This document shows, piece after piece, positions 1 through 6,156 of a stretch of DNA of 6,156 bases. The translations under genes were made by a program, and so were the position numbers. The notes below the pieces were generated by a model. It was not told the DNA's origin, searched no databases, and was given only the letters and a program-made list of their open reading frames with translations. Numbering within the stretch: the first letter of the stretch is position 1; every line of letters begins with the position of its first letter. The stretch is from the IMG/VR virus record IMGVR_UViG_3300045988_001497, positions 1 through 6,156 of that record. One strand, 5' to 3'. This DNA comes from a virus.

Positions 1-99
1 AATAATCCTTGCTAGAGAACTGTACCACCTCTTTCCAGCGCTGTAAGTATTCAGTAGCACGAATAGACAATGCAGATAAATCAGAATTAAGAGCAAGAA
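1..99. repeat. Terminal redundancy, copy 1 (identical to 6058-6156); wrap-around of a circular 6057-nt genome
   Basis: Base-by-base comparison shows 1-99 (aataatccttgctagagaac...gagcaagaa) equals 6058-6156 exactly. The identity runs to both window edges, so 99 nt is a minimum set by the window. The VP1 reading frame is continuous across the junction. Confidence 0.97.
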
Positions 100-1063
100 C
101 ACGAATAGAGCCAGTAGTATTACCATAAGAAGTAGCTAAAGAAGTAGCACTAGCAGGATTTTGAACCAGTGAAGCCGCAGAGCCTTCTTTATAAGGTGAA
201 TTACGAGCAACAACAGCATTAGAACCACCAACAGATGGAATATACGAAGGTAATACAGCTACCGAACCATATTGAGAAGCAGGAAGCATACCCATAAAGT
301 AGTCCTTCGGATAGTTTGCATAGCGTAACTGAACCATATCCGTAACCAATCCAATAGTACCAACACCGGACCAATAGTCTACATTATAGGCATAAGCTTT
401 GTGCTTCTCCCATTGAGAATTGCTGAAAAAATCATAATAGATTTTCTGATAAGCAAGGAATGGAAGAGCATTGACTATCTGTGAAGTCTGATAAACCAAA
501 GGATTATCAGTATCACCAAGACTGTCAACACCTAGATATTTTTTAGTAATAGCAGCCTTAGCTGTATTAGTACTAGCAATCAAAGAACCATAACCAAGCA
601 TATCAAGTAACTTGCAAGAACCATAGACAATAGGAAGTCCAGCATCGTCACGAGTATTAGTCTGGTCATTAGCATTAGCCGTCTGAAGAAACAAGCTAAG
701 GACCTGCTGAGAAACATTAGGCACAGAAGTAAGTACAGATGTATTCTCAGTAGAACTAGATGCACTAGTCATATAGTCCGTCATCTGAGTAAACGCCTGC
801 GGAAGCGCACGGGAAATCAGACGTAACGGCACAGCGTAAAAATCATAATATTCCTTGATACGGGTATAAGCAGCGGTATTTACCGGAACAGTACGGGTAA
901 ACCAATCCGAAGAAATACGATACTTATTACCAGGAATAGCAATCTGCCAATAACAAGGAAGAATTTCACCAACTTTGGCTGTAAACAACTTTTTCGAGCT
1001 CAAGTCGAAGGAAGACCGATGAGTAGAAATACTAGCTCGGTCTAAAGGATTAAAATCACTCAT
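1..1063 (-). CDS. VP1: Major capsid protein VP1 (Microviridae F-like), N-terminal 354 codons; continues across the circular junction into 6057..5366
   Basis: ATG at 1063-1061. I translated the frame by hand down to position 1 and found no stop. It begins MSDFNPLDRASISTHRSSFDLSSKKLFTAKVGEILPCYWQIAIPGNKYRISSDWFTRTVPVNTAAYTRIKEYYDFYAVPLRL and later contains NALPFLAYQKIYYDFF and LRYANYPKDYF. These are hallmark microvirus capsid motifs (SFDLS, PGD/N, AYQKIYxDyy, KDYF). The frame joins the track ORF 5366-6127 exactly, whose leading M is really an internal TTG Leu at position 70. The ORF track missed this part because it runs off the window edge. Full protein is 584 aa. Confidence 0.93.
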   Translation of the reverse strand, partial: MSDFNPLDRASISTHRSSFDLSSKKLFTAKVGEILPCYWQIAIPGNKYRISSDWFTRTVPVNTAAYTRIKEYYDFYAVPLRLISRALPQAFTQMTDYMTSASSSTENTSVLTSVPNVSQQVLSLFLQTANANDQTNTRDDAGLPIVYGSCKLLDMLGYGSLIASTNTAKAAITKKYLGVDSLGDTDNPLVYQTSQIVNALPFLAYQKIYYDFFSNSQWEKHKAYAYNVDYWSGVGTIGLVTDMVQLRYANYPKDYFMGMLPASQYGSVAVLPSYIPSVGGSNAVVARNSPYKEGSAASLVQNPASATSLATSYGNTTGSIRVLALNSDLSALSIRATEYLQRWKEVVQFSSKDY

Positions 1064-1090
1064 AATGTAGTAAATTAAAATTTATAAAGA

Positions 1091-2770
1091 TTAAACCATA
1101 CGGTTAAAAATATTATTAGCATCATTAAGTTTCTTGTGCTTAATCATATCACGACAGAATGTCGCACTACGGTACCGGAGCTGCTCAAGGAGTTGAACCG
1201 TTTCACTTGATACGGCCTGCAAGACATCAATCTCCTGCCCGTTCTGAGGCAACGCAAACATACAATCCGATATGTCCGGGTTAGCGGAACGTAAGTCGAA
1301 TACATCTCGTAAACTTTCATAATCCTTTTTCTTCTCATACTCTATGCCTGTTTTAATGATAAACATAATACGACCGGAGTAAGCACTAACATCAGAACCG
1401 AAGCCAGGCAGATGCCAATTACGGAAGAATTTATAGACATATAAGAACAACCGATATAACTTATTAATATAAGATTCAATATCGACATCACTAGAACAGT
1501 TAACAAACCTAGTAAGACACCGAGAAGCATGTAATATAATCTTGTCATCATCAGTAAGAATAGAATGAACCTTAAGGTATTGATAATAAGCACGGACAAG
1601 ACTCAAGACCGAGTCCTGTTTATAGTCAATGAACCCGAATTTTGCAATTCTCTGCGGCGTTCGGTGAACAGCGCAAAGAACTCGAATAATCGCAGTAGCA
1701 TCGTCATTGCGAGCAGACGAGAACCGCGGCAATAAGGTACGGATATACGACAGGGGTGGAGTTGAGCAAACACTGACGCCATTGAAATTATAGACTCTTC
1801 CATTAACAACAGAATCGATCTTCTCTTCAATTTTCGCATAAGGGTCTTCGTCTTCCACGAAAGAGCAACCCTTCTCAAAGAATCCAACGGATGCTCTTGA
1901 TTTGGGTCTAAACGCGCGGCATGATCTATATAATAAGGGAGCAGAACACAGGCTATTAACGTAGCTCGCAACGTATGAACAAGCTCCACCTGCGGAACGT
2001 TGGAAATCTGAACGACCGAGTTTCCAACTCTTATCGTGACAGTATCGTAAAACCTGGGCGACTTTGTCCGAGTTTGTGAATAATAAGAGATGATAATGCG
2101 GGCGGAAATGCACGGGTCCGTATTCACCCACAGCGTAGAAATGTAACGGTTCATAAGATCCTAATTTTAAAGATAAATGTTTACGTAATCGTTTAATATA
2201 ATTCTGAACATCCACATAATTTAAGAAGGGAATAAGGTTATCACGACCATATTGTTCAGAAGCAGGATAGTCCGTTTTGTCAACGGCTTGTGTCTTACTG
2301 ATAAAACTACGAATAGCATCCATACTAAGAAACCAATTATCCTTAACAGGAACATATTCCTTAATTTCACGGTCAAACGGCACAGTACCTTGAACTTGCT
2401 CGAAGAATATATGACGCAACATGGAGTCAGCATCACATTGATATTCAGAAACAGGGATATATTGATGATGCTCATTACCAAAATGAATATCTCCTAAAAT
2501 GCCTAAGGCATCCTCATAATCACTGTGAAGAACCTTACAATTCATAAGAGGAATGTGTACATTATCATAAGTAAGCGTTACAAAATAAGAGTACTTAAAA
2601 GCACTTCCAGCGGTCTTCACGCGCATGGACGCCTTTTTAGCACGCTTATGGATACAATAATCGCATTGACCACAATCCACGGCAATGCGTGCACCAGTGT
2701 ACCTGTTCGTAATAAAAGAACGGTGTTGACAATGATCAACAGCCTTAAACAATTCAGGAGAAAATTTCAT
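1091..2770 (-). CDS. VP4: Rolling-circle replication initiation protein VP4 (HUH endonuclease, phiX gene A family), 559 aa
   Basis: Track ORF 1091-2776. I prefer the ATG at 2770-2768 (MKFSPELF) over the GVG-type alternative start, a GTG at 2776. Motif 1 is FVTLTY (nt 2584-2567). Motif 2 is RPHYHLLLF (HYHLLLF at nt 2098-2078). Motif 3 is the two-tyrosine YVASYVNS (nt 1975-1952), compared with YVAKYVNK as I recall it for phiX A protein. There is an N-terminal Cys cluster DCGQCDYC and an LNYVDVQNYIKRLRK segment typical of microvirus Reps. Confidence 0.93.
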   Translation of the reverse strand: MKFSPELFKAVDHCQHRSFITNRYTGARIAVDCGQCDYCIHKRAKKASMRVKTAGSAFKYSYFVTLTYDNVHIPLMNCKVLHSDYEDALGILGDIHFGNEHHQYIPVSEYQCDADSMLRHIFFEQVQGTVPFDREIKEYVPVKDNWFLSMDAIRSFISKTQAVDKTDYPASEQYGRDNLIPFLNYVDVQNYIKRLRKHLSLKLGSYEPLHFYAVGEYGPVHFRPHYHLLLFTNSDKVAQVLRYCHDKSWKLGRSDFQRSAGGACSYVASYVNSLCSAPLLYRSCRAFRPKSRASVGFFEKGCSFVEDEDPYAKIEEKIDSVVNGRVYNFNGVSVCSTPPLSYIRTLLPRFSSARNDDATAIIRVLCAVHRTPQRIAKFGFIDYKQDSVLSLVRAYYQYLKVHSILTDDDKIILHASRCLTRFVNCSSDVDIESYINKLYRLFLYVYKFFRNWHLPGFGSDVSAYSGRIMFIIKTGIEYEKKKDYESLRDVFDLRSANPDISDCMFALPQNGQEIDVLQAVSSETVQLLEQLRYRSATFCRDMIKHKKLNDANNIFNRMV

Positions 2771-2772
2771 AA

Positions 2773-3081
2773 TCACTTACGTTTATCAATCACGTGATGC
2801 CGATCACGACTACAAAATGAAATATGAATAAACGTAGGATATAATATCAACTGGTCAAATGTGTGAACATCATCTGAAAAAGTATGGATACATTCGAGCA
2901 ATCGATTATAAGTAGTAGAACCATAAGGTTTTATATCAACAGCTTCACCTACAAGATGCTGGGAAGTCGGAACACCTCCAGCAGCCTCATTCTGTTCGGG
3001 AGTACGTCTAGCGCTAGTTACCGTAAAATGAGTATTAGAATGCAACAGGTACTCAAAAAAATGCATAAGAATATAATTCAT
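2773..3081 (-). CDS. Peptidase M15 family (zinc D-Ala-D-Ala carboxypeptidase / L-alanoyl-D-glutamate peptidase-like), putative endolysin, 102 aa
   Basis: The translation contains FTVTSARRTPEQNEAAGGVPTSQHLVGEAVDI followed by PTFIHISF. This matches the M15 / LAS-type pattern S-x-R-x-P-x-x-N...G...SxHxxGxAxD, plus a distal His. The inferred Zn ligands are H42, D49 and H86. No N-terminal signal peptide is evident. The start ATG 3081-3079 overlaps the upstream stop (ATGA). The stop TGA 2775-2773 lies 2 nt before the VP4 ATG. Confidence 0.85.
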   Translation of the reverse strand: MNYILMHFFEYLLHSNTHFTVTSARRTPEQNEAAGGVPTSQHLVGEAVDIKPYGSTTYNRLLECIHTFSDDVHTFDQLILYPTFIHISFCSRDRHHVIDKRK

Positions 3082-3161
3082 AATCCAATAGCATTAAGAA
3101 TATAACCAAGAGCAGCAGATACAGCGCCAATTACAATTTTCCAAATATTATTAGTTTTCAT
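3078..3161 (-). CDS. 27-aa single-pass membrane peptide, holin/pinholin-like candidate (MKTNNIWKIVIGAVSAALGYILNAIGL)
   Basis: This is the C-terminal part of track ORF 3078-3302, starting at the ATG at 3161-3159. It has a short polar, Lys-containing N-terminus. A roughly 19-residue hydrophobic stretch follows, with small-xxx-small spacing (GAVSAALG). Third codon positions are T-rich, as in the confirmed genes. The stop overlaps the peptidase start as ATGA. Otherwise this stretch would be about 70 nt of unexplained sequence in a tightly packed genome. An alternative in-frame ATG lies at 3191. Confidence 0.5.
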   Translation of the reverse strand: MKTNNIWKIVIGAVSAALGYILNAIGL

Positions 3162-3345
3162 TAGTTTGGGCTTTAAGTTCAACAAAATCATTCTCTTCTT
3201 TAATTGAATCCACAATAACAATAAGGCCCAACGAAGAAACTCGTTCAGAATAGTTTCCAAGACCGTCGAGAGAATTAACGATATAAGGCGAAACAACATC
3301 ACGGCCAGTGGTTTTGTCCTTAACTGAGATAATAAATTTTTGCAT
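3151..3345 (-). CDS. Hypothetical 64-aa protein, first ORF downstream of the predicted promoter (MQKFIISVKDKTTGRDVVSPYIVNSLDGLGNYSERVSSLGLIVIVDSIKEENDFVELKAQTNEN)
   Basis: This is the internal ATG (3345-3343) of track ORF 3151-3426; the longer version would run through the promoter. Codon pattern is G-rich at position 1 and T-rich at position 3, matching VP1. The residue composition is balanced and not an off-frame Leu/Ile/Phe-rich artefact. I recognise no family motif. It overlaps the next ORF by 11 nt. Confidence 0.5.
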   Translation of the reverse strand: MQKFIISVKDKTTGRDVVSPYIVNSLDGLGNYSERVSSLGLIVIVDSIKEENDFVELKAQTNEN

Positions 3346-3396
3346 AATTTTAATAAATTTTAAAATGTTAATAATAGTTGTAACTTCTAACGGAGG

Positions 3397-3427
3397 CAAA
3401 GGTATGACTTTTTTTCGTATTTCCAAA
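3397..3427 (-). promoter_or_regulatory. Bacteroides-type promoter: -33 TTTG, 19-nt spacer, -7 TAccTTTG
   Basis: The minus strand reads TTTG (3427-3424), then gaaatacgaaaaaaagtca, then TACCTTTG (3404-3397). This fits the published Bacteroides sigma-AB consensus of TTTG at -33 and TAnnTTTG at -7 with the expected spacing. In my read of the non-coding regions I saw no other TAnnTTTG in this sense. It sits about 50 nt upstream of the first ATG (3345). Confidence 0.5.
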
Positions 3428-3477
3428 TATTCTCTTTTAGGAATTGTGGGGATAGGACCATTTTGGGACGGAGTGTG

Positions 3478-3545
3478 AGTTGTGCGTTTATGGACGAGAG
3501 AAAACGAAATTGAGATGGTAACTCAATTTTCCTTCGGACACAACT
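3478..3545. other. 68-nt cloverleaf-like four-way junction (tRNA-like shape, non-canonical), function unknown
   Basis: The closing stem is AGTTGTG (3478-3484) paired with CACAACT (3539-3545), 7 bp. Arm 1 is CGTTT (3485-3489) with AAACG (3502-3506) and a 12-nt loop. Arm 2 is AAATTGAG (3507-3514) with CTCAATTT (3522-3529) and a 7-nt loop ATGGTAA. Arm 3 is TCC-TTC-GGA (3530-3538). All pairs are Watson-Crick and there are no unpaired junction nucleotides. Confidence 0.45.
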
Positions 3546-3560
3546 AGGGGCTTCGCTTGA

Positions 3561-3601
3561 ATAAAACAAAAAGTCCTAGATCCATTACTAATAGATCCAG
3601 G
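3561..3601 (-). terminator. Weak intrinsic-terminator candidate: imperfect 27-nt palindrome followed by a T-tract (minus sense)
   Basis: CCTAGATCCATTACTAATAGATCCAGG (3575-3601) folds into a 13-position stem with two A.C mismatches. In the minus sense it is followed by ACTTTTTGTTTTAT (3574-3561). The stem is AT-rich, so it is weak. Confidence 0.3.
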
Positions 3602-3631
3602 GCGTGGATGTATACAAAGGTGTATAGGCAC

Positions 3632-3653
3632 GGCAGGTCAGATAGAACCTGCC
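3632..3653. other. Perfect hairpin GGCAGGT-cagataga-ACCTGCC
   Basis: A 7-bp Watson-Crick stem (3632-3638 with 3647-3653) and an 8-nt loop, read directly from the sequence. Confidence 0.6.
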
Positions 3654-3656
3654 TTT

Positions 3657-3670
3657 GCGCGCCTTCGCGC
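3657..3670. other. GC hairpin GCGCG-CCTT-CGCGC
   Basis: A 5-bp all-GC stem (3657-3661 with 3666-3670) and a 4-nt loop, 3 nt after the preceding hairpin. Confidence 0.5.
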
Positions 3671-3722
3671 TAAAATACCGGAGCGGAACGCTCCTATAAG
3701 GAAGTCGCTCCGCTCCGTTTTT
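3671..3722. terminator. Long GC-rich hairpin flanked by A-tract and T-tract: candidate bidirectional intrinsic terminator for the VP1-VP3-VP2 transcript
   Basis: CGGAGCGGA (3679-3687) pairs with TCCGCTCCG (3709-3717), 9 bp. It can extend inward with CG/CG and CTCC/GGAAG around a TATAA loop. On the plus strand TTTTT follows (3718-3722). In the minus (gene) sense GTATTTTA follows (3678-3671). It lies 76-114 nt downstream of the VP2 stop. Confidence 0.4.
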
Positions 3723-3729
3723 AGACCAG

Positions 3730-3776
3730 GCCCTACGCGGGCGGCGGGTGTATATCGCTCAAACGCCGCGATGGGC
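3730..3776. other. GC-clamped hairpin with an AT-containing loop, immediately after the VP2 stop; candidate origin element
   Basis: GCCC (3730-3733) pairs with GGGC (3773-3776). After a 2x2 internal loop, CGCGG (3736-3740) pairs with CCGCG (3766-3770). An alternative register is GCGGCG with CGCCGC. The loop in virion sense reads TTTGAGCGATATACACC. Confidence 0.45.
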
Positions 3777-3792
3777 TTTTAGTCTTATGTTA

Positions 3793-4914
3793 TTACCGGC
3801 CGTCATAGATCGTAGTATTACGGGGACCATAACCAGGGCGGAAAGAACCAACAAAATTACCAGCACCGGATGCAAGAGAACCAAGACCACGGGAAACAGA
3901 CTCCCAATAATAAGCACGGGATTGTCTACGAGACAATTCAGCACCATATTCAGCAGCCTTCTGATTTGCCATAGAAGTCTTATATTCCGCATGTTTACGT
4001 AACTTAACATTCTTATAATCATACGTACTATCACGATACTGTAATTCATAAGAAGCATTAGCAGCCTTAATTAAAGAATCAGCAGTTTCAGACGCTAAAC
4101 GATTCTCAATATTCTTACCGGAAGCCTCGGCAGAAACAAGAATAGCACGCTGGATTTCAGTCTGAATCTGTTTTTCCGTAAGGGCTCCTTGATTCTGAAG
4201 ATTAACTAAAGTCTGAGCCTTAATAAATAAATCAGCCTGTTGGTTCTGATCCATATATTTATTTATAACACGCTGTGCATCAGAATTAAGCAAAATCTGA
4301 GTTTCCTGTGCAGCAGAAATACGTTCAGCGAACTGGGCGTTCTTTAATTCTTGAGCTTCCATAGACTGATCTAGAGCAGCAGAAATACGTCCTGTTGTTG
4401 GAGTCCAATAGCCGGAAGCACCAACTGCCAAATTTTTCCAACTAGTAAGACCTCTATAATAATCCTGCAAAATAGGAGTCAATGAATTAGTCTGATTAGT
4501 ACGAGCGTCGGACTCACGAGCAGAAGCTTCTGAAGATTTAGCTTGAGCTAGAGAAGCAAGAGACTGGAACACACCCGAAAAATTAGGTTTATAAGCCTGC
4601 ATGCTAGGAACAGGTGCAGCAGTAGCAGAAGCTCCACCGGAAGCGGGAGACCTAGAACCGGCCATAGCAGCAGAACCTTGAACAAATGGATTCAAACCTC
4701 GAGAAATCATTGCATCGGGAGAATTGTAAGCATTATTCATACCCCACATTTGTTGCTGCCAATCACGTTGAATCTGAGCCTGTTCAGCGTTAAATGCGTT
4801 CTGTTCACGCATCAGACGAAGATTAACCTTATTCTGATGATTCTGATTAACCATACCGACAATATTGTCAGTAAGGTTAGCAGCTGAGGAAGCTATAGCA
4901 TCAAACAAACCCAT
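3793..4914 (-). CDS. VP2: Minor capsid / DNA pilot protein VP2 (phiX H-like), 373 aa
   Basis: The N-terminus is MGLFDAIASSAANL...NLRLMREQNAFNAEQAQIQRDWQQQMWGMNNAYNSPDAMISRGLNPFV. It carries the pilot-protein signature of gokusho-type microviruses (QxxFNxxEAQKxRDWQxxM...NAYNSPxAxMxRxxxAGLNP). The central region is Ala/Ser/Gln-rich and predicted helical. The position after VP3 fits. The ATG 4914-4912 overlaps the upstream stop (TAATG). Confidence 0.85.
   Translation of the reverse strand: MGLFDAIASSAANLTDNIVGMVNQNHQNKVNLRLMREQNAFNAEQAQIQRDWQQQMWGMNNAYNSPDAMISRGLNPFVQGSAAMAGSRSPASGGASATAAPVPSMQAYKPNFSGVFQSLASLAQAKSSEASARESDARTNQTNSLTPILQDYYRGLTSWKNLAVGASGYWTPTTGRISAALDQSMEAQELKNAQFAERISAAQETQILLNSDAQRVINKYMDQNQQADLFIKAQTLVNLQNQGALTEKQIQTEIQRAILVSAEASGKNIENRLASETADSLIKAANASYELQYRDSTYDYKNVKLRKHAEYKTSMANQKAAEYGAELSRRQSRAYYWESVSRGLGSLASGAGNFVGSFRPGYGPRNTTIYDGR
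4310..4390. repeat. Exact 15-nt direct repeat GCAGCAGAAATACGT (4310-4324 and 4376-4390) inside VP2
   Basis: The two copies are 66 nt (22 codons) apart. They encode RISAAQ and RISAAL in ...GRISAALDQSMEAQELKNAQFAERISAAQ.... Confidence 0.9.
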
Positions 4915-5354
4915 TATTCAGAAGGAGCAGACGCGGAATCCGAAGACGGCACTGCCTTATTCTCTGCCAACATAGTCTCTGCAAATTCAGTAAGTTCAGA
5001 CTTCTCACTAGCCAATTGTTGAAGAACAGCCTGTCGTTCCGACATAGTCTGACAATGACGAGAGATAACACAATTAAAACGTTCCTCATCAGTCATACCG
5101 TCCATAACAGTAGACTGAGTAGGATGCATCTGAGCAAGAATATTCTGAACATTCATATCACCAAGCAAACGGCGATATTTTTCTTGGTTAAGAAGAATCT
5201 GCGTCATATCACATTGAAGCAAATCACCGTCAGAAGATTCATCATACATAACAGTATCATAAACAGACTGCTGATAACACGGATGTCCCTCAATCAACTC
5301 GGGAACAACCTCATTCTTAATATAATCGGGATTTATATAAGCAAAATTTCTCAT
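4914..5354 (-). CDS. Putative internal scaffolding protein (VP3-like by size and position), 146 aa
   Basis: Track ORF 4914-5360. I prefer the ATG at 5354-5352 (MRNFAYINPDY...) over the TTG at 5360. It is acidic and about 150 aa. It sits between VP1 and VP2, which is one of the gene orders I recall for gokusho-type genomes, though I cannot confirm that here. The codon bias looks like that of the confirmed genes. I recognise no strong family motif, so only the coding call is firm. Confidence 0.6.
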   Translation of the reverse strand: MRNFAYINPDYIKNEVVPELIEGHPCYQQSVYDTVMYDESSDGDLLQCDMTQILLNQEKYRRLLGDMNVQNILAQMHPTQSTVMDGMTDEERFNCVISRHCQTMSERQAVLQQLASEKSELTEFAETMLAENKAVPSSDSASAPSE

Positions 5355-5365
5355 AATCAATTAAT

Positions 5366-6156
5366 TTAATAAGGTAAACCACTTCTGTCCAAGTTCTGAA
5401 CAGCATATACTTGAAAATTAACATTACACAACAACTGATCAAATGCAACCGAACAATTAGCAGCATCAATCTGAGGAACAAAAATAGAATTCAACTGCTG
5501 AGGACGAACCTTCATTGATTGATAAGACCAAGCACCGGCAGAAGTCAATACCTGCCAACCATCAAGAGGGGCAGCCCATGACTGATAAACAGCGCCAGCA
5601 CGGAATCCGGCATGAACAGTATCAATACTAGATTTCCACTGCCAATAACGGAGGTTATAACCAAGAGCACCGGAAACATTACGTCCGGGATTGTTCTGAA
5701 GGTTGAGAGCAGGAACAGACTGCATACCAAGCTGATCGAATGCGGGCTGCGGAAAGTCAGATATAGCAGTGACAGTCAGCTGAGGGGCCTGTCCTGTCAA
5801 ATTCCAGTCCAACATAGGTACAGCATGATAAACACACATAATCACTTGATGCTCAGCACCGCAATCATAAGTAAGAATGTGGCCGGACTGACTGGATACA
5901 CCTTTACCGGCAATAGAAGCTTGAGAAGAATCGGTATCAAGATTAGTATTAACTACTTCATTGATATTAATAACACTAGACCAGCCTCCAATATAATGAG
6001 CATGATTACCCATATACTCGGGAGCTTTGATACCAAACTGGGCAGCCATTTGGTCTGAATAATCCTTGCTAGAGAACTGTACCACCTCTTTCCAGCGCTG
6101 TAAGTATTCAGTAGCACGAATAGACAATGCAGATAAATCAGAATTAAGAGCAAGAA
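5366..6156 (-). CDS. VP1: Major capsid protein VP1, C-terminal part (unique sequence 5366-6057; 6058-6156 duplicates 1-99)
   Basis: Track ORF 5366-6127 is in frame with 1..1063 across the circular junction (codon 6056-6058, where 6058 equals position 1). The C-terminal sequence is ...GYNLRYWQWKSSIDTVHAGF...FDQLLCNVNFQVYAVQNLDRSGLPY, with a TAA stop at 5368-5366. It is the conserved jelly-roll C-terminal half of the microvirus capsid. Confidence 0.93.
   Translation of the reverse strand, partial: LALNSDLSALSIRATEYLQRWKEVVQFSSKDYSDQMAAQFGIKAPEYMGNHAHYIGGWSSVININEVVNTNLDTDSSQASIAGKGVSSQSGHILTYDCGAEHQVIMCVYHAVPMLDWNLTGQAPQLTVTAISDFPQPAFDQLGMQSVPALNLQNNPGRNVSGALGYNLRYWQWKSSIDTVHAGFRAGAVYQSWAAPLDGWQVLTSAGAWSYQSMKVRPQQLNSIFVPQIDAANCSVAFDQLLCNVNFQVYAVQNLDRSGLPY
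6058..6156. repeat. Terminal redundancy, copy 2 (identical to 1-99)
   Basis: Same comparison as for copy 1. Confidence 0.97.

Follow-up and report, generated by a model that had tools for sequence, protein, structure and literature searches.

Reviews still describe the lysis of phages with single-stranded DNA (ssDNA) as the work of a single gene (PMC10707117, PMC11946311). Lysis by microviruses outside the phiX174 group poses the question of how a signal-less peptidase would cross the membrane. Roux et al. 2012 found 11 microviruses from gut and lung with M15_3 peptidases and suggested that these act as endolysins, noting holin neighbours only in homologues from double-stranded DNA (dsDNA) prophages (PMC3394797). 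Kirchberger et al. 2022 described peptidases as the main accessory genes (PMC9239249), and Bardy et al. 2025 reported that the purified microvirus hydrolase Ebor Gp7 degrades peptidoglycan, listing the 45-amino-acid (aa) membrane protein Gp1 of Ebor without comment (PMC11980548). Here, we analyze a viral DNA stretch of 6,156 nt (IMG/VR record IMGVR_UViG_3300045988_001497, positions 1 to 6,156; in the following the window), in which the gene of a 27-aa predicted membrane peptide overlaps the gene of a 102-aa M15 peptidase. An earlier reading of this DNA, made from the sequence only, had mentioned M15 peptidase genes in some metagenomic microviruses, which the first two surveys (PMC3394797, PMC9239249) confirm. 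It knew of no description of a coupled membrane partner, and our full-text literature searches also returned no description of a membrane partner of a microvirus peptidase. The enzyme half of the locus is already known; the peptide gene is real, and no functional description of it was found in the literature. Compared with the earlier microviral M15_3 genes and with Ebor Gp7 and Gp1, the enzyme and the viral family are the same. In the window virus, however, the peptide is adjacent, overlapping, co-inherited and under selection, and the enzyme is shortened to 102 aa, while the earlier papers link no membrane peptide to the peptidase.

Several other systems invite comparison. In the holin-endolysin cassettes of tailed dsDNA phages a small membrane-protein gene likewise adjoins and overlaps a signal-less muralytic gene, and the enzymes are homologous. 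The nearest dsDNA-phage homologue is that of Stenotrophomonas phage Siara (43% identity), where the annotated cassette comprises an endolysin, two holin/antiholin proteins, an i-spanin and an o-spanin. Unlike in those cassettes, the membrane protein of the window has 27 residues and one helix, no charged C-terminal tail and no holin-family match; there are no antiholin or spanin genes, and the pair sits in a 6-kb ssDNA microvirus genome. The gene order also differs, with the peptide gene before the enzyme gene here and the enzyme first in Siara. Cystovirus phi6 is another small non-tailed phage that pairs a wall enzyme, the endopeptidase P5, with a tiny hydrophobic lysis protein, the small membrane protein P10 of about 42 aa. 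It differs in virus realm, genome type and enzyme family, and P5 is also the virion entry enzyme.

The phiX174 protein E and other single-gene lysis proteins (Sgl, also called amurins) resemble the peptide as short N-terminal transmembrane (TM) peptides of very small phages, and E comes from the same viral family. However, E is overprinted in gene D, needs no muralytic enzyme and requires a proline in its TM segment. The peptide of the window has no similarity to E and no proline in its helix, lies beside an M15 peptidase and occupies a gap of its own, sharing only 11 nt and 4 nt with the neighbouring genes. To the signal-anchor-release (SAR) endolysin and pinholin of phage 21 and to the Mu releasin the likeness is one of composition, a Gly/Ala/Ser-rich and weakly hydrophobic helix. 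In contrast to these systems the helix is here a separate polypeptide, encoded in a different frame from the enzyme, and the enzyme has no TM segment or signal-anchor. The sequence-only reading had offered a pinholin or a membrane-release factor among its suggestions. Both need a SAR endolysin, and because the 102-aa enzyme has no signal-anchor domain there would be nothing for them to release; these two suggestions are therefore disfavoured. The type I toxins TisB (29 aa) and Hok (about 50 aa) are alike in size, single TM helix, polar stripe and expected depolarising ability. They belong to toxin-antitoxin loci of chromosomes or plasmids, with control by antisense RNA, and are not phage genes coupled to a peptidase, and no homology of the peptide to type I toxin peptides was detected.

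The peptide gene and its peptidase

Hydrophobic off-frame open reading frames (ORFs) are common in these T-rich genomes, and in phage phiHBP1 alone 13 of them overlap annotated genes. A test for a gene must therefore be evolutionary, since hydrophobicity alone proves nothing. The 27-aa ORF fills the sole gap between its two flanking genes. For the coding test we used 47 loci from GenBank and IMG/VR that were picked by peptidase similarity only. The 69-nt core occurs in them in 43 distinct DNA versions, which amount to only 15 peptides at the protein level, and variation is found at 22 of 23 third codon positions and at 5 of 23 second positions. The entropy at the three codon positions is 0.34, 0.04 and 0.86, and the ratio of nonsynonymous to synonymous polymorphism (pN/pS) is 0.14 when the peptide frame is read, compared with 1.0 and 3.7 for the two alternative frames. 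In 50 peptidase-picked loci that have the 102-aa peptidase, the peptide core has a pN/pS of 0.085 and the enzyme one of 0.29, and the mean pairwise amino-acid identity is 95% for the peptide compared with 77% for the enzyme; 11 core positions are invariant. Across more than 100 distinct sequences, pN/pS of the peptide is 0.09-0.14 and the codon-position entropy 0.30, 0.10 and 0.87. Variation at wobble positions together with low in-frame pN/pS marks the ORF as a protein-coding gene. Judged from these substitution patterns, it is under purifying selection and more constrained than the peptidase gene. Ahead of the conserved ATG it is the frame of the preceding 64-aa ORF that bears the coding signature, and hence the 27-aa start is genuine. 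A longer TM ORF (74 aa from a GTG, or 37 aa) was considered and rejected: the upstream signature lies in the frame of the 64-aa gene and the upstream ATG is not conserved. JGI/IMG and some third party annotation (TPA) records in nr call the peptide ORF a hypothetical protein. It is annotated in none of the 14 GenBank relatives examined, and three of these extend the peptidase across the peptide gene.

Peptide and peptidase are inherited together. Among 81 loci of relatives (class A) picked by their peptidase, the peptide is present in 79, and the other two end at a contig edge, so that all 79 assessable loci carry it. In the other direction, a degenerate DNA pattern for IGAxSAALGYxLN matched 116 IMG/VR contigs, all microvirus-sized. 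Eighty of these were fetched, and in 79 the peptidase lies directly downstream (77 with the overlap read directly, two across the contig junction). In the 77 readable loci the junction is ATGA, except for GTGA in two. The sequence-only reading had placed the 27-aa ORF and the ATGA overlap (3081-3078) correctly to the base. We consider that this overlap probably represents translational coupling. An alignment-based search for distant viral loci gave close relatives only among its best 80 loci.

The 102-aa protein matches Pfam PF08291 (Peptidase_M15_3) with 36.4 bits (cutoff 23.2; E 6e-9; profile positions 42-107 of 108) and PHROG 894, labelled endolysin, with an E-value of 1.7e-14. PF08291 is present in 240 of 240 homologues among the matches listed. 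Neither the 9 diverse nor the 40 close homologues compared show any change at the zinc ligands H42, D49 and H86. An AlphaFold2 model reached a pLDDT of 91.5, and its best PDB neighbours have M15 folds, although with weak E-values: 1lbu, the Streptomyces zinc DD-peptidase (probability 1.00, TM-score 0.51), VanY (5hnm) and the L-Ala-D-Glu endopeptidase ChiX (5opz). The family profile finds the T5 L-Ala-D-Glu peptidase 2mxz among PDB sequences (E 1e-3). A phmmer search of PDB with the single peptidase gave spurious lectin matches only. No signal or TM segment was found in the enzyme, where the best 19-residue window has a dG of about +10 kcal/mol. Profile match, fold and ligand conservation all agree with the sequence-only reading of the protein as an M15 enzyme, and we regard it on these sequence comparisons as a bona fide M15_3 zinc peptidase with an intact active site. 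It is a shortened form that lacks about 40 N-terminal residues of ordinary M15_3 proteins; other microviral M15 proteins have 134-158 aa and are likewise without a TM or signal segment.

The peptide begins with a polar and basic N-terminus, in which K2 and K8 are the sole charges of the molecule. A single hydrophobic stretch follows, I9-L27, with 19 Gly/Ala/Ser-rich residues and a KD17 of 2.05. It shares two features with holins, being a small phage protein with one predicted TM stretch whose gene adjoins that of a putative endolysin. A spanin is not indicated, as the 27-aa sequence has no Cys for a lipobox and no extramembrane domain.

Sister clade and further lineages

In a sister clade (class B; Dulem 236, Dulem 257 and bajarodmic 410) a different, 29-aa peptide, MKSETKSKIWSAIIAAAVSLLTSIAQIFS, occupies the same slot. 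A pattern for this peptide found 45 contigs, and in 45 of 45 the 102-aa M15 peptidase follows 3-56 nt downstream. The class B peptide is near-invariant, with 36 DNA variants encoding 5 peptides. When class A and class B peptides are aligned on their common I-W, only 6 of 21 residues are identical. A stripe of small or polar residues lies at the same helical positions in both (G/A, A/S, G/T, N/Q and G/S), and at a sixth position one peptide has S and the other V. In PHROGs the best hit of the class A peptide is a family of unknown function (E 0.19) and that of the class B peptide phrog_443, a holin (E 0.13), neither being significant.

A third lineage (bajarodmic viruses 8, 387, 1155 and 276) has an M15 peptidase of 138-154 aa, preceded at a distance of about 55 nt by an unrelated single-TM ORF of 37-44 aa (MESESDKLLRVIRYILIGAVV...). 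The latter is kept as an ORF and evolves faster, with a conserved N-terminal half and a variable TM half. Only the record of bajarodmic virus 1155 annotates it, as hypothetical. Among IMG/VR contigs the bajarodmic 8 peptidase had relatives on non-microviral contigs only, and the bajarodmic 155 peptidase had none.

Small unannotated intergenic TM ORFs were also seen beside M15 peptidase genes in three more genomes. Dulem virus 261 (contig L219, 1748-1834) has MKKETIKTIINTICTILSAIAAAICTTN, which resembles the class B peptide; bajarodmic virus 155 (L220, 546-689) has one of 47 aa, with no second copy in GenBank phages; and Microvirus D_HF5_96 (L216) has one at 753-815. In the cultured Bacteroides phage phiHBP1 the sole intergenic hydrophobic ORF, MKLNFSVLKKVILLIHDIVTFLLQRKKNN, is unannotated, lies downstream of the peptidase and has 29 aa (38 aa if an ATG further upstream is used).

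A proposed holin-like partner and its alternatives

Peptide and peptidase genes are both real; they are conserved, lie side by side and are inherited together, and the enzyme keeps a complete M15 active site and lacks a signal. Very probably the short ORF encodes a true membrane peptide with a functional tie to the peptidase. For its function we favor a holin-like partner of a cytoplasmic endolysin, a role read from gene position and architecture, to which we would give an even chance. The 102-aa zinc peptidase, made in the cytoplasm without an export signal, would be the wall-cutting endolysin. The peptide would be translated just ahead of it, probably coupled via the ATGA overlap, and would insert in the inner membrane with the N-terminus inside and K2 and K8 in the cytoplasm. 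It might then oligomerise via the small/polar stripe formed by G12, S15/A16, G19, N23 and G26. At a critical concentration the peptide would permeabilise the membrane, and the small enzyme would gain the peptidoglycan. Membrane insertion, oligomerisation, permeabilisation and a lysis role of either protein are what we infer here. The reading of the pair as a lysis module draws on the position, the overlap, the co-inheritance, the recurrence in three lineages and the canonical cassette round the closest dsDNA-phage homologue; the degradation of peptidoglycan by Ebor Gp7 also speaks for it. Since Bacteroides uniformis, the host of a class B relative (see below), is Gram-negative, a cytoplasmic enzyme must cross the inner membrane, and a conserved, co-inherited membrane peptide is a concrete candidate answer to the question of enzyme export.

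A number of observations weigh against a holin-like role. The hydrophobicity of the helix is marginal (dG of about +1.6 kcal/mol for the 19 residues), and the peptide ends inside the helix (...NAIGL) without the hydrophilic, charged C-terminal tail that is typical of holins. Described holins have some 60-150 aa and the peptide is far shorter. No holin-family match was found in Pfam, PHROGs or NCBIfam. A 27-mer with one helix would presumably need to form holes that pass a 12-kDa protein, and no outer-membrane, spanin-like component was seen. For a holin it is unusual to be more conserved than the enzyme, and a specific protein target would suit this pattern at least as well. The partners are also separable. 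One of the 80 class A motif contigs, the partial 5.4-kb L124 (IMGVR_UViG_3300045988_000047), keeps the peptide gene and has lost the peptidase: between 3120 and 3260 the peptide gene ends ...AIGV followed by TAA, and the gene of the replication initiator (Rep) starts about 55 nt on. The deletion is flanked by the 14-nt repeat GCTCTTGGTTATAT and may be natural, may mark a defective genome or may stem from the assembly. Conversely, the 2.7 kb of mar63 that were examined contain a peptidase and lack any TM ORF, and phiHBP1 has no TM ORF immediately upstream of its peptidase. Lastly, the gap in the sister clade means that the coupling is not universal. The sequence-only reading had named as a check whether relatives keep a short TM ORF upstream of the peptidase, with the overlap; in class A place and [AG]TGA are both retained, and in the sister clade a peptide fills the slot with a gap in place of the overlap.

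If the holin-like role is true, the two genes would constitute a minimal holin-endolysin system of about 390 nt and the peptide a 27-residue membrane-active molecule aimed at gut Bacteroidales. It would also show that such a peptide gene is routinely missed or mishandled by gene callers and annotators. Because a related prophage resides in B. uniformis, the idea of a peptide-peptidase pair is testable in a tractable host. We put forward more tentatively, and with less than even confidence, that the 27-29-aa peptides may be a new class of ultra-small lysis effector, either the shortest holin-like protein (an oligomer of the glycine-zipper type) or an inhibitor of a conserved Bacteroides envelope protein, and that, with the 102-aa M15 endolysin, a large group of gut microviruses (Alpavirinae-like) may use them as its standard means of lysis. 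On this bolder reading, single-protein, non-enzymatic lysis would no longer hold as the rule for ssDNA phages.

An unlikely alternative is that the peptide itself is the lysis or killing effector, acting as an inhibitor of wall synthesis in the way that phiX174 E acts on MraY or as a depolariser like the type I toxins, and that the peptidase is accessory. Small phages commonly lyse with short TM peptides, E and the 37-aa LysM of phage M being examples. The tight constraint on the peptide, in identity and in its invariant core positions, would fit a specific host target, and the separability just described, with the peptide retained in L124 and the peptidase found without an adjacent peptide in mar63 and phiHBP1, points the same way. 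However, L124 is a single partial contig with a repeat at the junction and may be an artefact or a defective genome. The near-perfect co-occurrence with the peptidase in two clades (79/79, 79/80 and 45/45) argues against an independent effector, as do the lack of similarity to E, the lack of a TM proline and the intergenic rather than overprinted position of the gene.

We assign the same low probability to a membrane role outside lysis, for instance in superinfection exclusion, at the site of replication or assembly, or in prophage maintenance, with the peptidase as an entry or precursor-degrading enzyme and the adjacency a result of tight packing. Adjacency is indeed weak evidence in a genome of seven genes, the module lies in a chain with Rep and a 64-aa gene of unknown function, and the temperate life of the sister clade makes roles in lysogeny possible. 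The M15 enzymes VanX and VanY act on precursors. Against such a role speak the small TM ORFs found independently in three lineages directly upstream of the peptidase, the homologous dsDNA-phage enzymes, which are endolysins inside lysis cassettes, and the conserved overlap of start and stop.

Somewhat less likely again is that the peptide binds the peptidase as an anchor, activator or antiholin-like inhibitor and does not open the membrane itself. Overlapping genes suggest coupled synthesis at about 1:1, the strongly conserved helical face would suit a protein-protein interface, and a partner might supply the part that the enzyme has lost with its roughly 40 N-terminal residues. Yet the peptide has almost no extramembrane residues with which to touch a soluble enzyme, and an anchor on the cytoplasmic face leaves the export problem unsolved.

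A joining of the two ORFs by a -1 frameshift or by stop read-through, which would yield a membrane-tethered SAR-type endolysin, is very improbable and contradicted by the sequence. The helix does resemble SAR domains in composition, the commonest class B arrangement is in frame with one stop and one codon between the ORFs, and the GenBank records of Dulem viruses 238, 243 and 226 (L007, L008 and L009; 1138-1512) annotate a 124-aa protein as peptidase or hypothetical. The first 21 codons of this protein, however, extend the peptidase frame across the peptide gene and not the TM frame, and they read MENHHWCC..., which is not hydrophobic; the annotation is a longest-ORF artefact, behind which the TM ORF goes unseen. 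In class A the peptidase frame is closed by a stop 15 nt upstream of the ATG in most loci, the last codons vary at wobble positions, and there is no slippery heptamer. Class B peptide genes end in TAA or TAG, and with a spacing of 6, 12, 19, 24, 35 or 59 nt the two genes are in different frames in some genomes. A chance frame or a leader ORF of indifferent sequence, for which one could cite the abundance of hydrophobic off-frame ORFs in T-rich genomes, is refuted by the substitution pattern, as the codon-position entropy and the pN/pS over more than 100 distinct sequences need selection on amino acids.

Genome context and host

The window covers a complete microvirus genome, circular and 6057 nt long; the additional 99 nt are a terminal repeat left by assembly. 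It is already present in nr as a TPA Microviridae metagenome-assembled genome (MAG) with the peptidase annotated, and the nr entry "MAG TPA: peptidase [Microviridae sp.]" is identical to the 102-aa protein. All seven genes are on the minus strand, in the order major capsid protein, 148-aa ORF, pilot protein, a gap of about 450 nt, 64-aa ORF, 27-aa ORF, peptidase and Rep (Table 1).

Table 1. Features of the window and of two comparison loci; positions refer to the window unless another contig is named.
Feature	Position	Strand	Remarks
Peptidase_M15_3 gene, 102 aa, minimal LAS-type zinc peptidase, putative cytoplasmic endolysin	2773..3081	minus	ATG 3081-3079
SxHxxGxAxD motif, S40-Q-H42-L-V-G45-E-A47-V-D49	2935..2964	minus	read from sequence; zinc ligands H42, D49
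H86, third zinc ligand	2824..2826	minus	in invariant H-I-S-F; from homologue comparison
27-aa peptide gene, MKTNNIWKIVIGAVSAALGYILNAIGL	3078..3161	minus	ATG 3161-3159, TGA 3080-3078; predicted single-pass membrane peptide
ATGA stop/start overlap, peptide gene/peptidase gene	3078..3081	minus	read from sequence
64-aa ORF (MQKFIISVKDK...)	3151..3345	minus	conserved; first gene of chain
Replication initiator gene (VP4-like)	1091..2770	minus	last gene of chain; ATG 2 nt past peptidase stop
Major capsid gene	1081 > 1, then 6057 > 5369	minus	crosses circular junction
Gap of ~450 nt between pilot gene and 64-aa gene	3346-3792	minus	no credible ORF
99-nt direct terminal repeat	1-99 and 6058-6156		window ends
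Third-lineage TM ORF	L221 665-799; L284, L285, L286 801-935		bajarodmic viruses 8, 387, 1155, 276
phiHBP1 hydrophobic ORF	L287 6309-6220, or 17 > 6220 across origin	minus	between peptidase and capsid genes; basic C-terminal tail

The last four genes follow each other closely, and the 64-aa ORF, peptide, peptidase and Rep may form one expression unit. In genomes of both classes, A and B, the 64-aa ORF ends 11 nt inside the peptide gene. The coding signature ahead of the peptide ATG lies in the frame of this ORF, which has no family match in Pfam, PHROGs or NCBIfam, and GenBank relatives list it as hypothetical protein. The gap ahead of this chain contains two terminator-like hairpins, at 3694-3680 and at 3601-3575, the latter with a 12-bp stem. 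Sigma-70-like hexamers are found directly ahead of the 64-aa gene. The Bacteroides-type promoter motif TAnnTTTG occurs there once, at 3404-3397, 52 nt upstream of the 64-aa gene, and its genome-wide count is not above chance. No Shine-Dalgarno motif was found at any gene of the window virus.

A host was sought with the peptide motif in genome contigs, where the sole match was one binned 5-kb microvirus contig. Four contigs with a class A peptidase, L269 and L271-L273 (9.7-12 kb), were considered as prophages and rejected, being head-to-tail concatemers of the 6-kb genome. The 27-aa ORF was missed by the gene callers used on these concatemers. Between gyrA/TPR and usp/batD of a 40.6-kb contig sits an integrated class B genome (L274, 9548-15829; ENA ERZ27253969, k141_54749). 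The GyrA, ClpC and HtpG of the flanks are identical in sequence to those of Bacteroides uniformis, the peptide gene is intact in this prophage, and the sister clade, at least, is temperate. Because this distant relative is a B. uniformis prophage and the window virus has no Shine-Dalgarno motifs, a Bacteroidales host is likely for the window virus as well. The only direct repeat found at the two prophage ends was one of 12 nt, TATATTAAACAT, and one of the integration junctions falls in the interval from the TPR gene to the first prophage ORF. Identity between the window virus and this prophage is 38% for the capsid protein, 28% for Rep, 33% for the pilot protein and 55% for the peptidase. The higher peptidase identity suggests, as far as sequence comparison goes, that the peptide-peptidase module is more constrained or has been swapped between microvirus lineages. 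Exchange of a peptidase between microvirus lineages has been described by Kirchberger et al. (PMC9239249).

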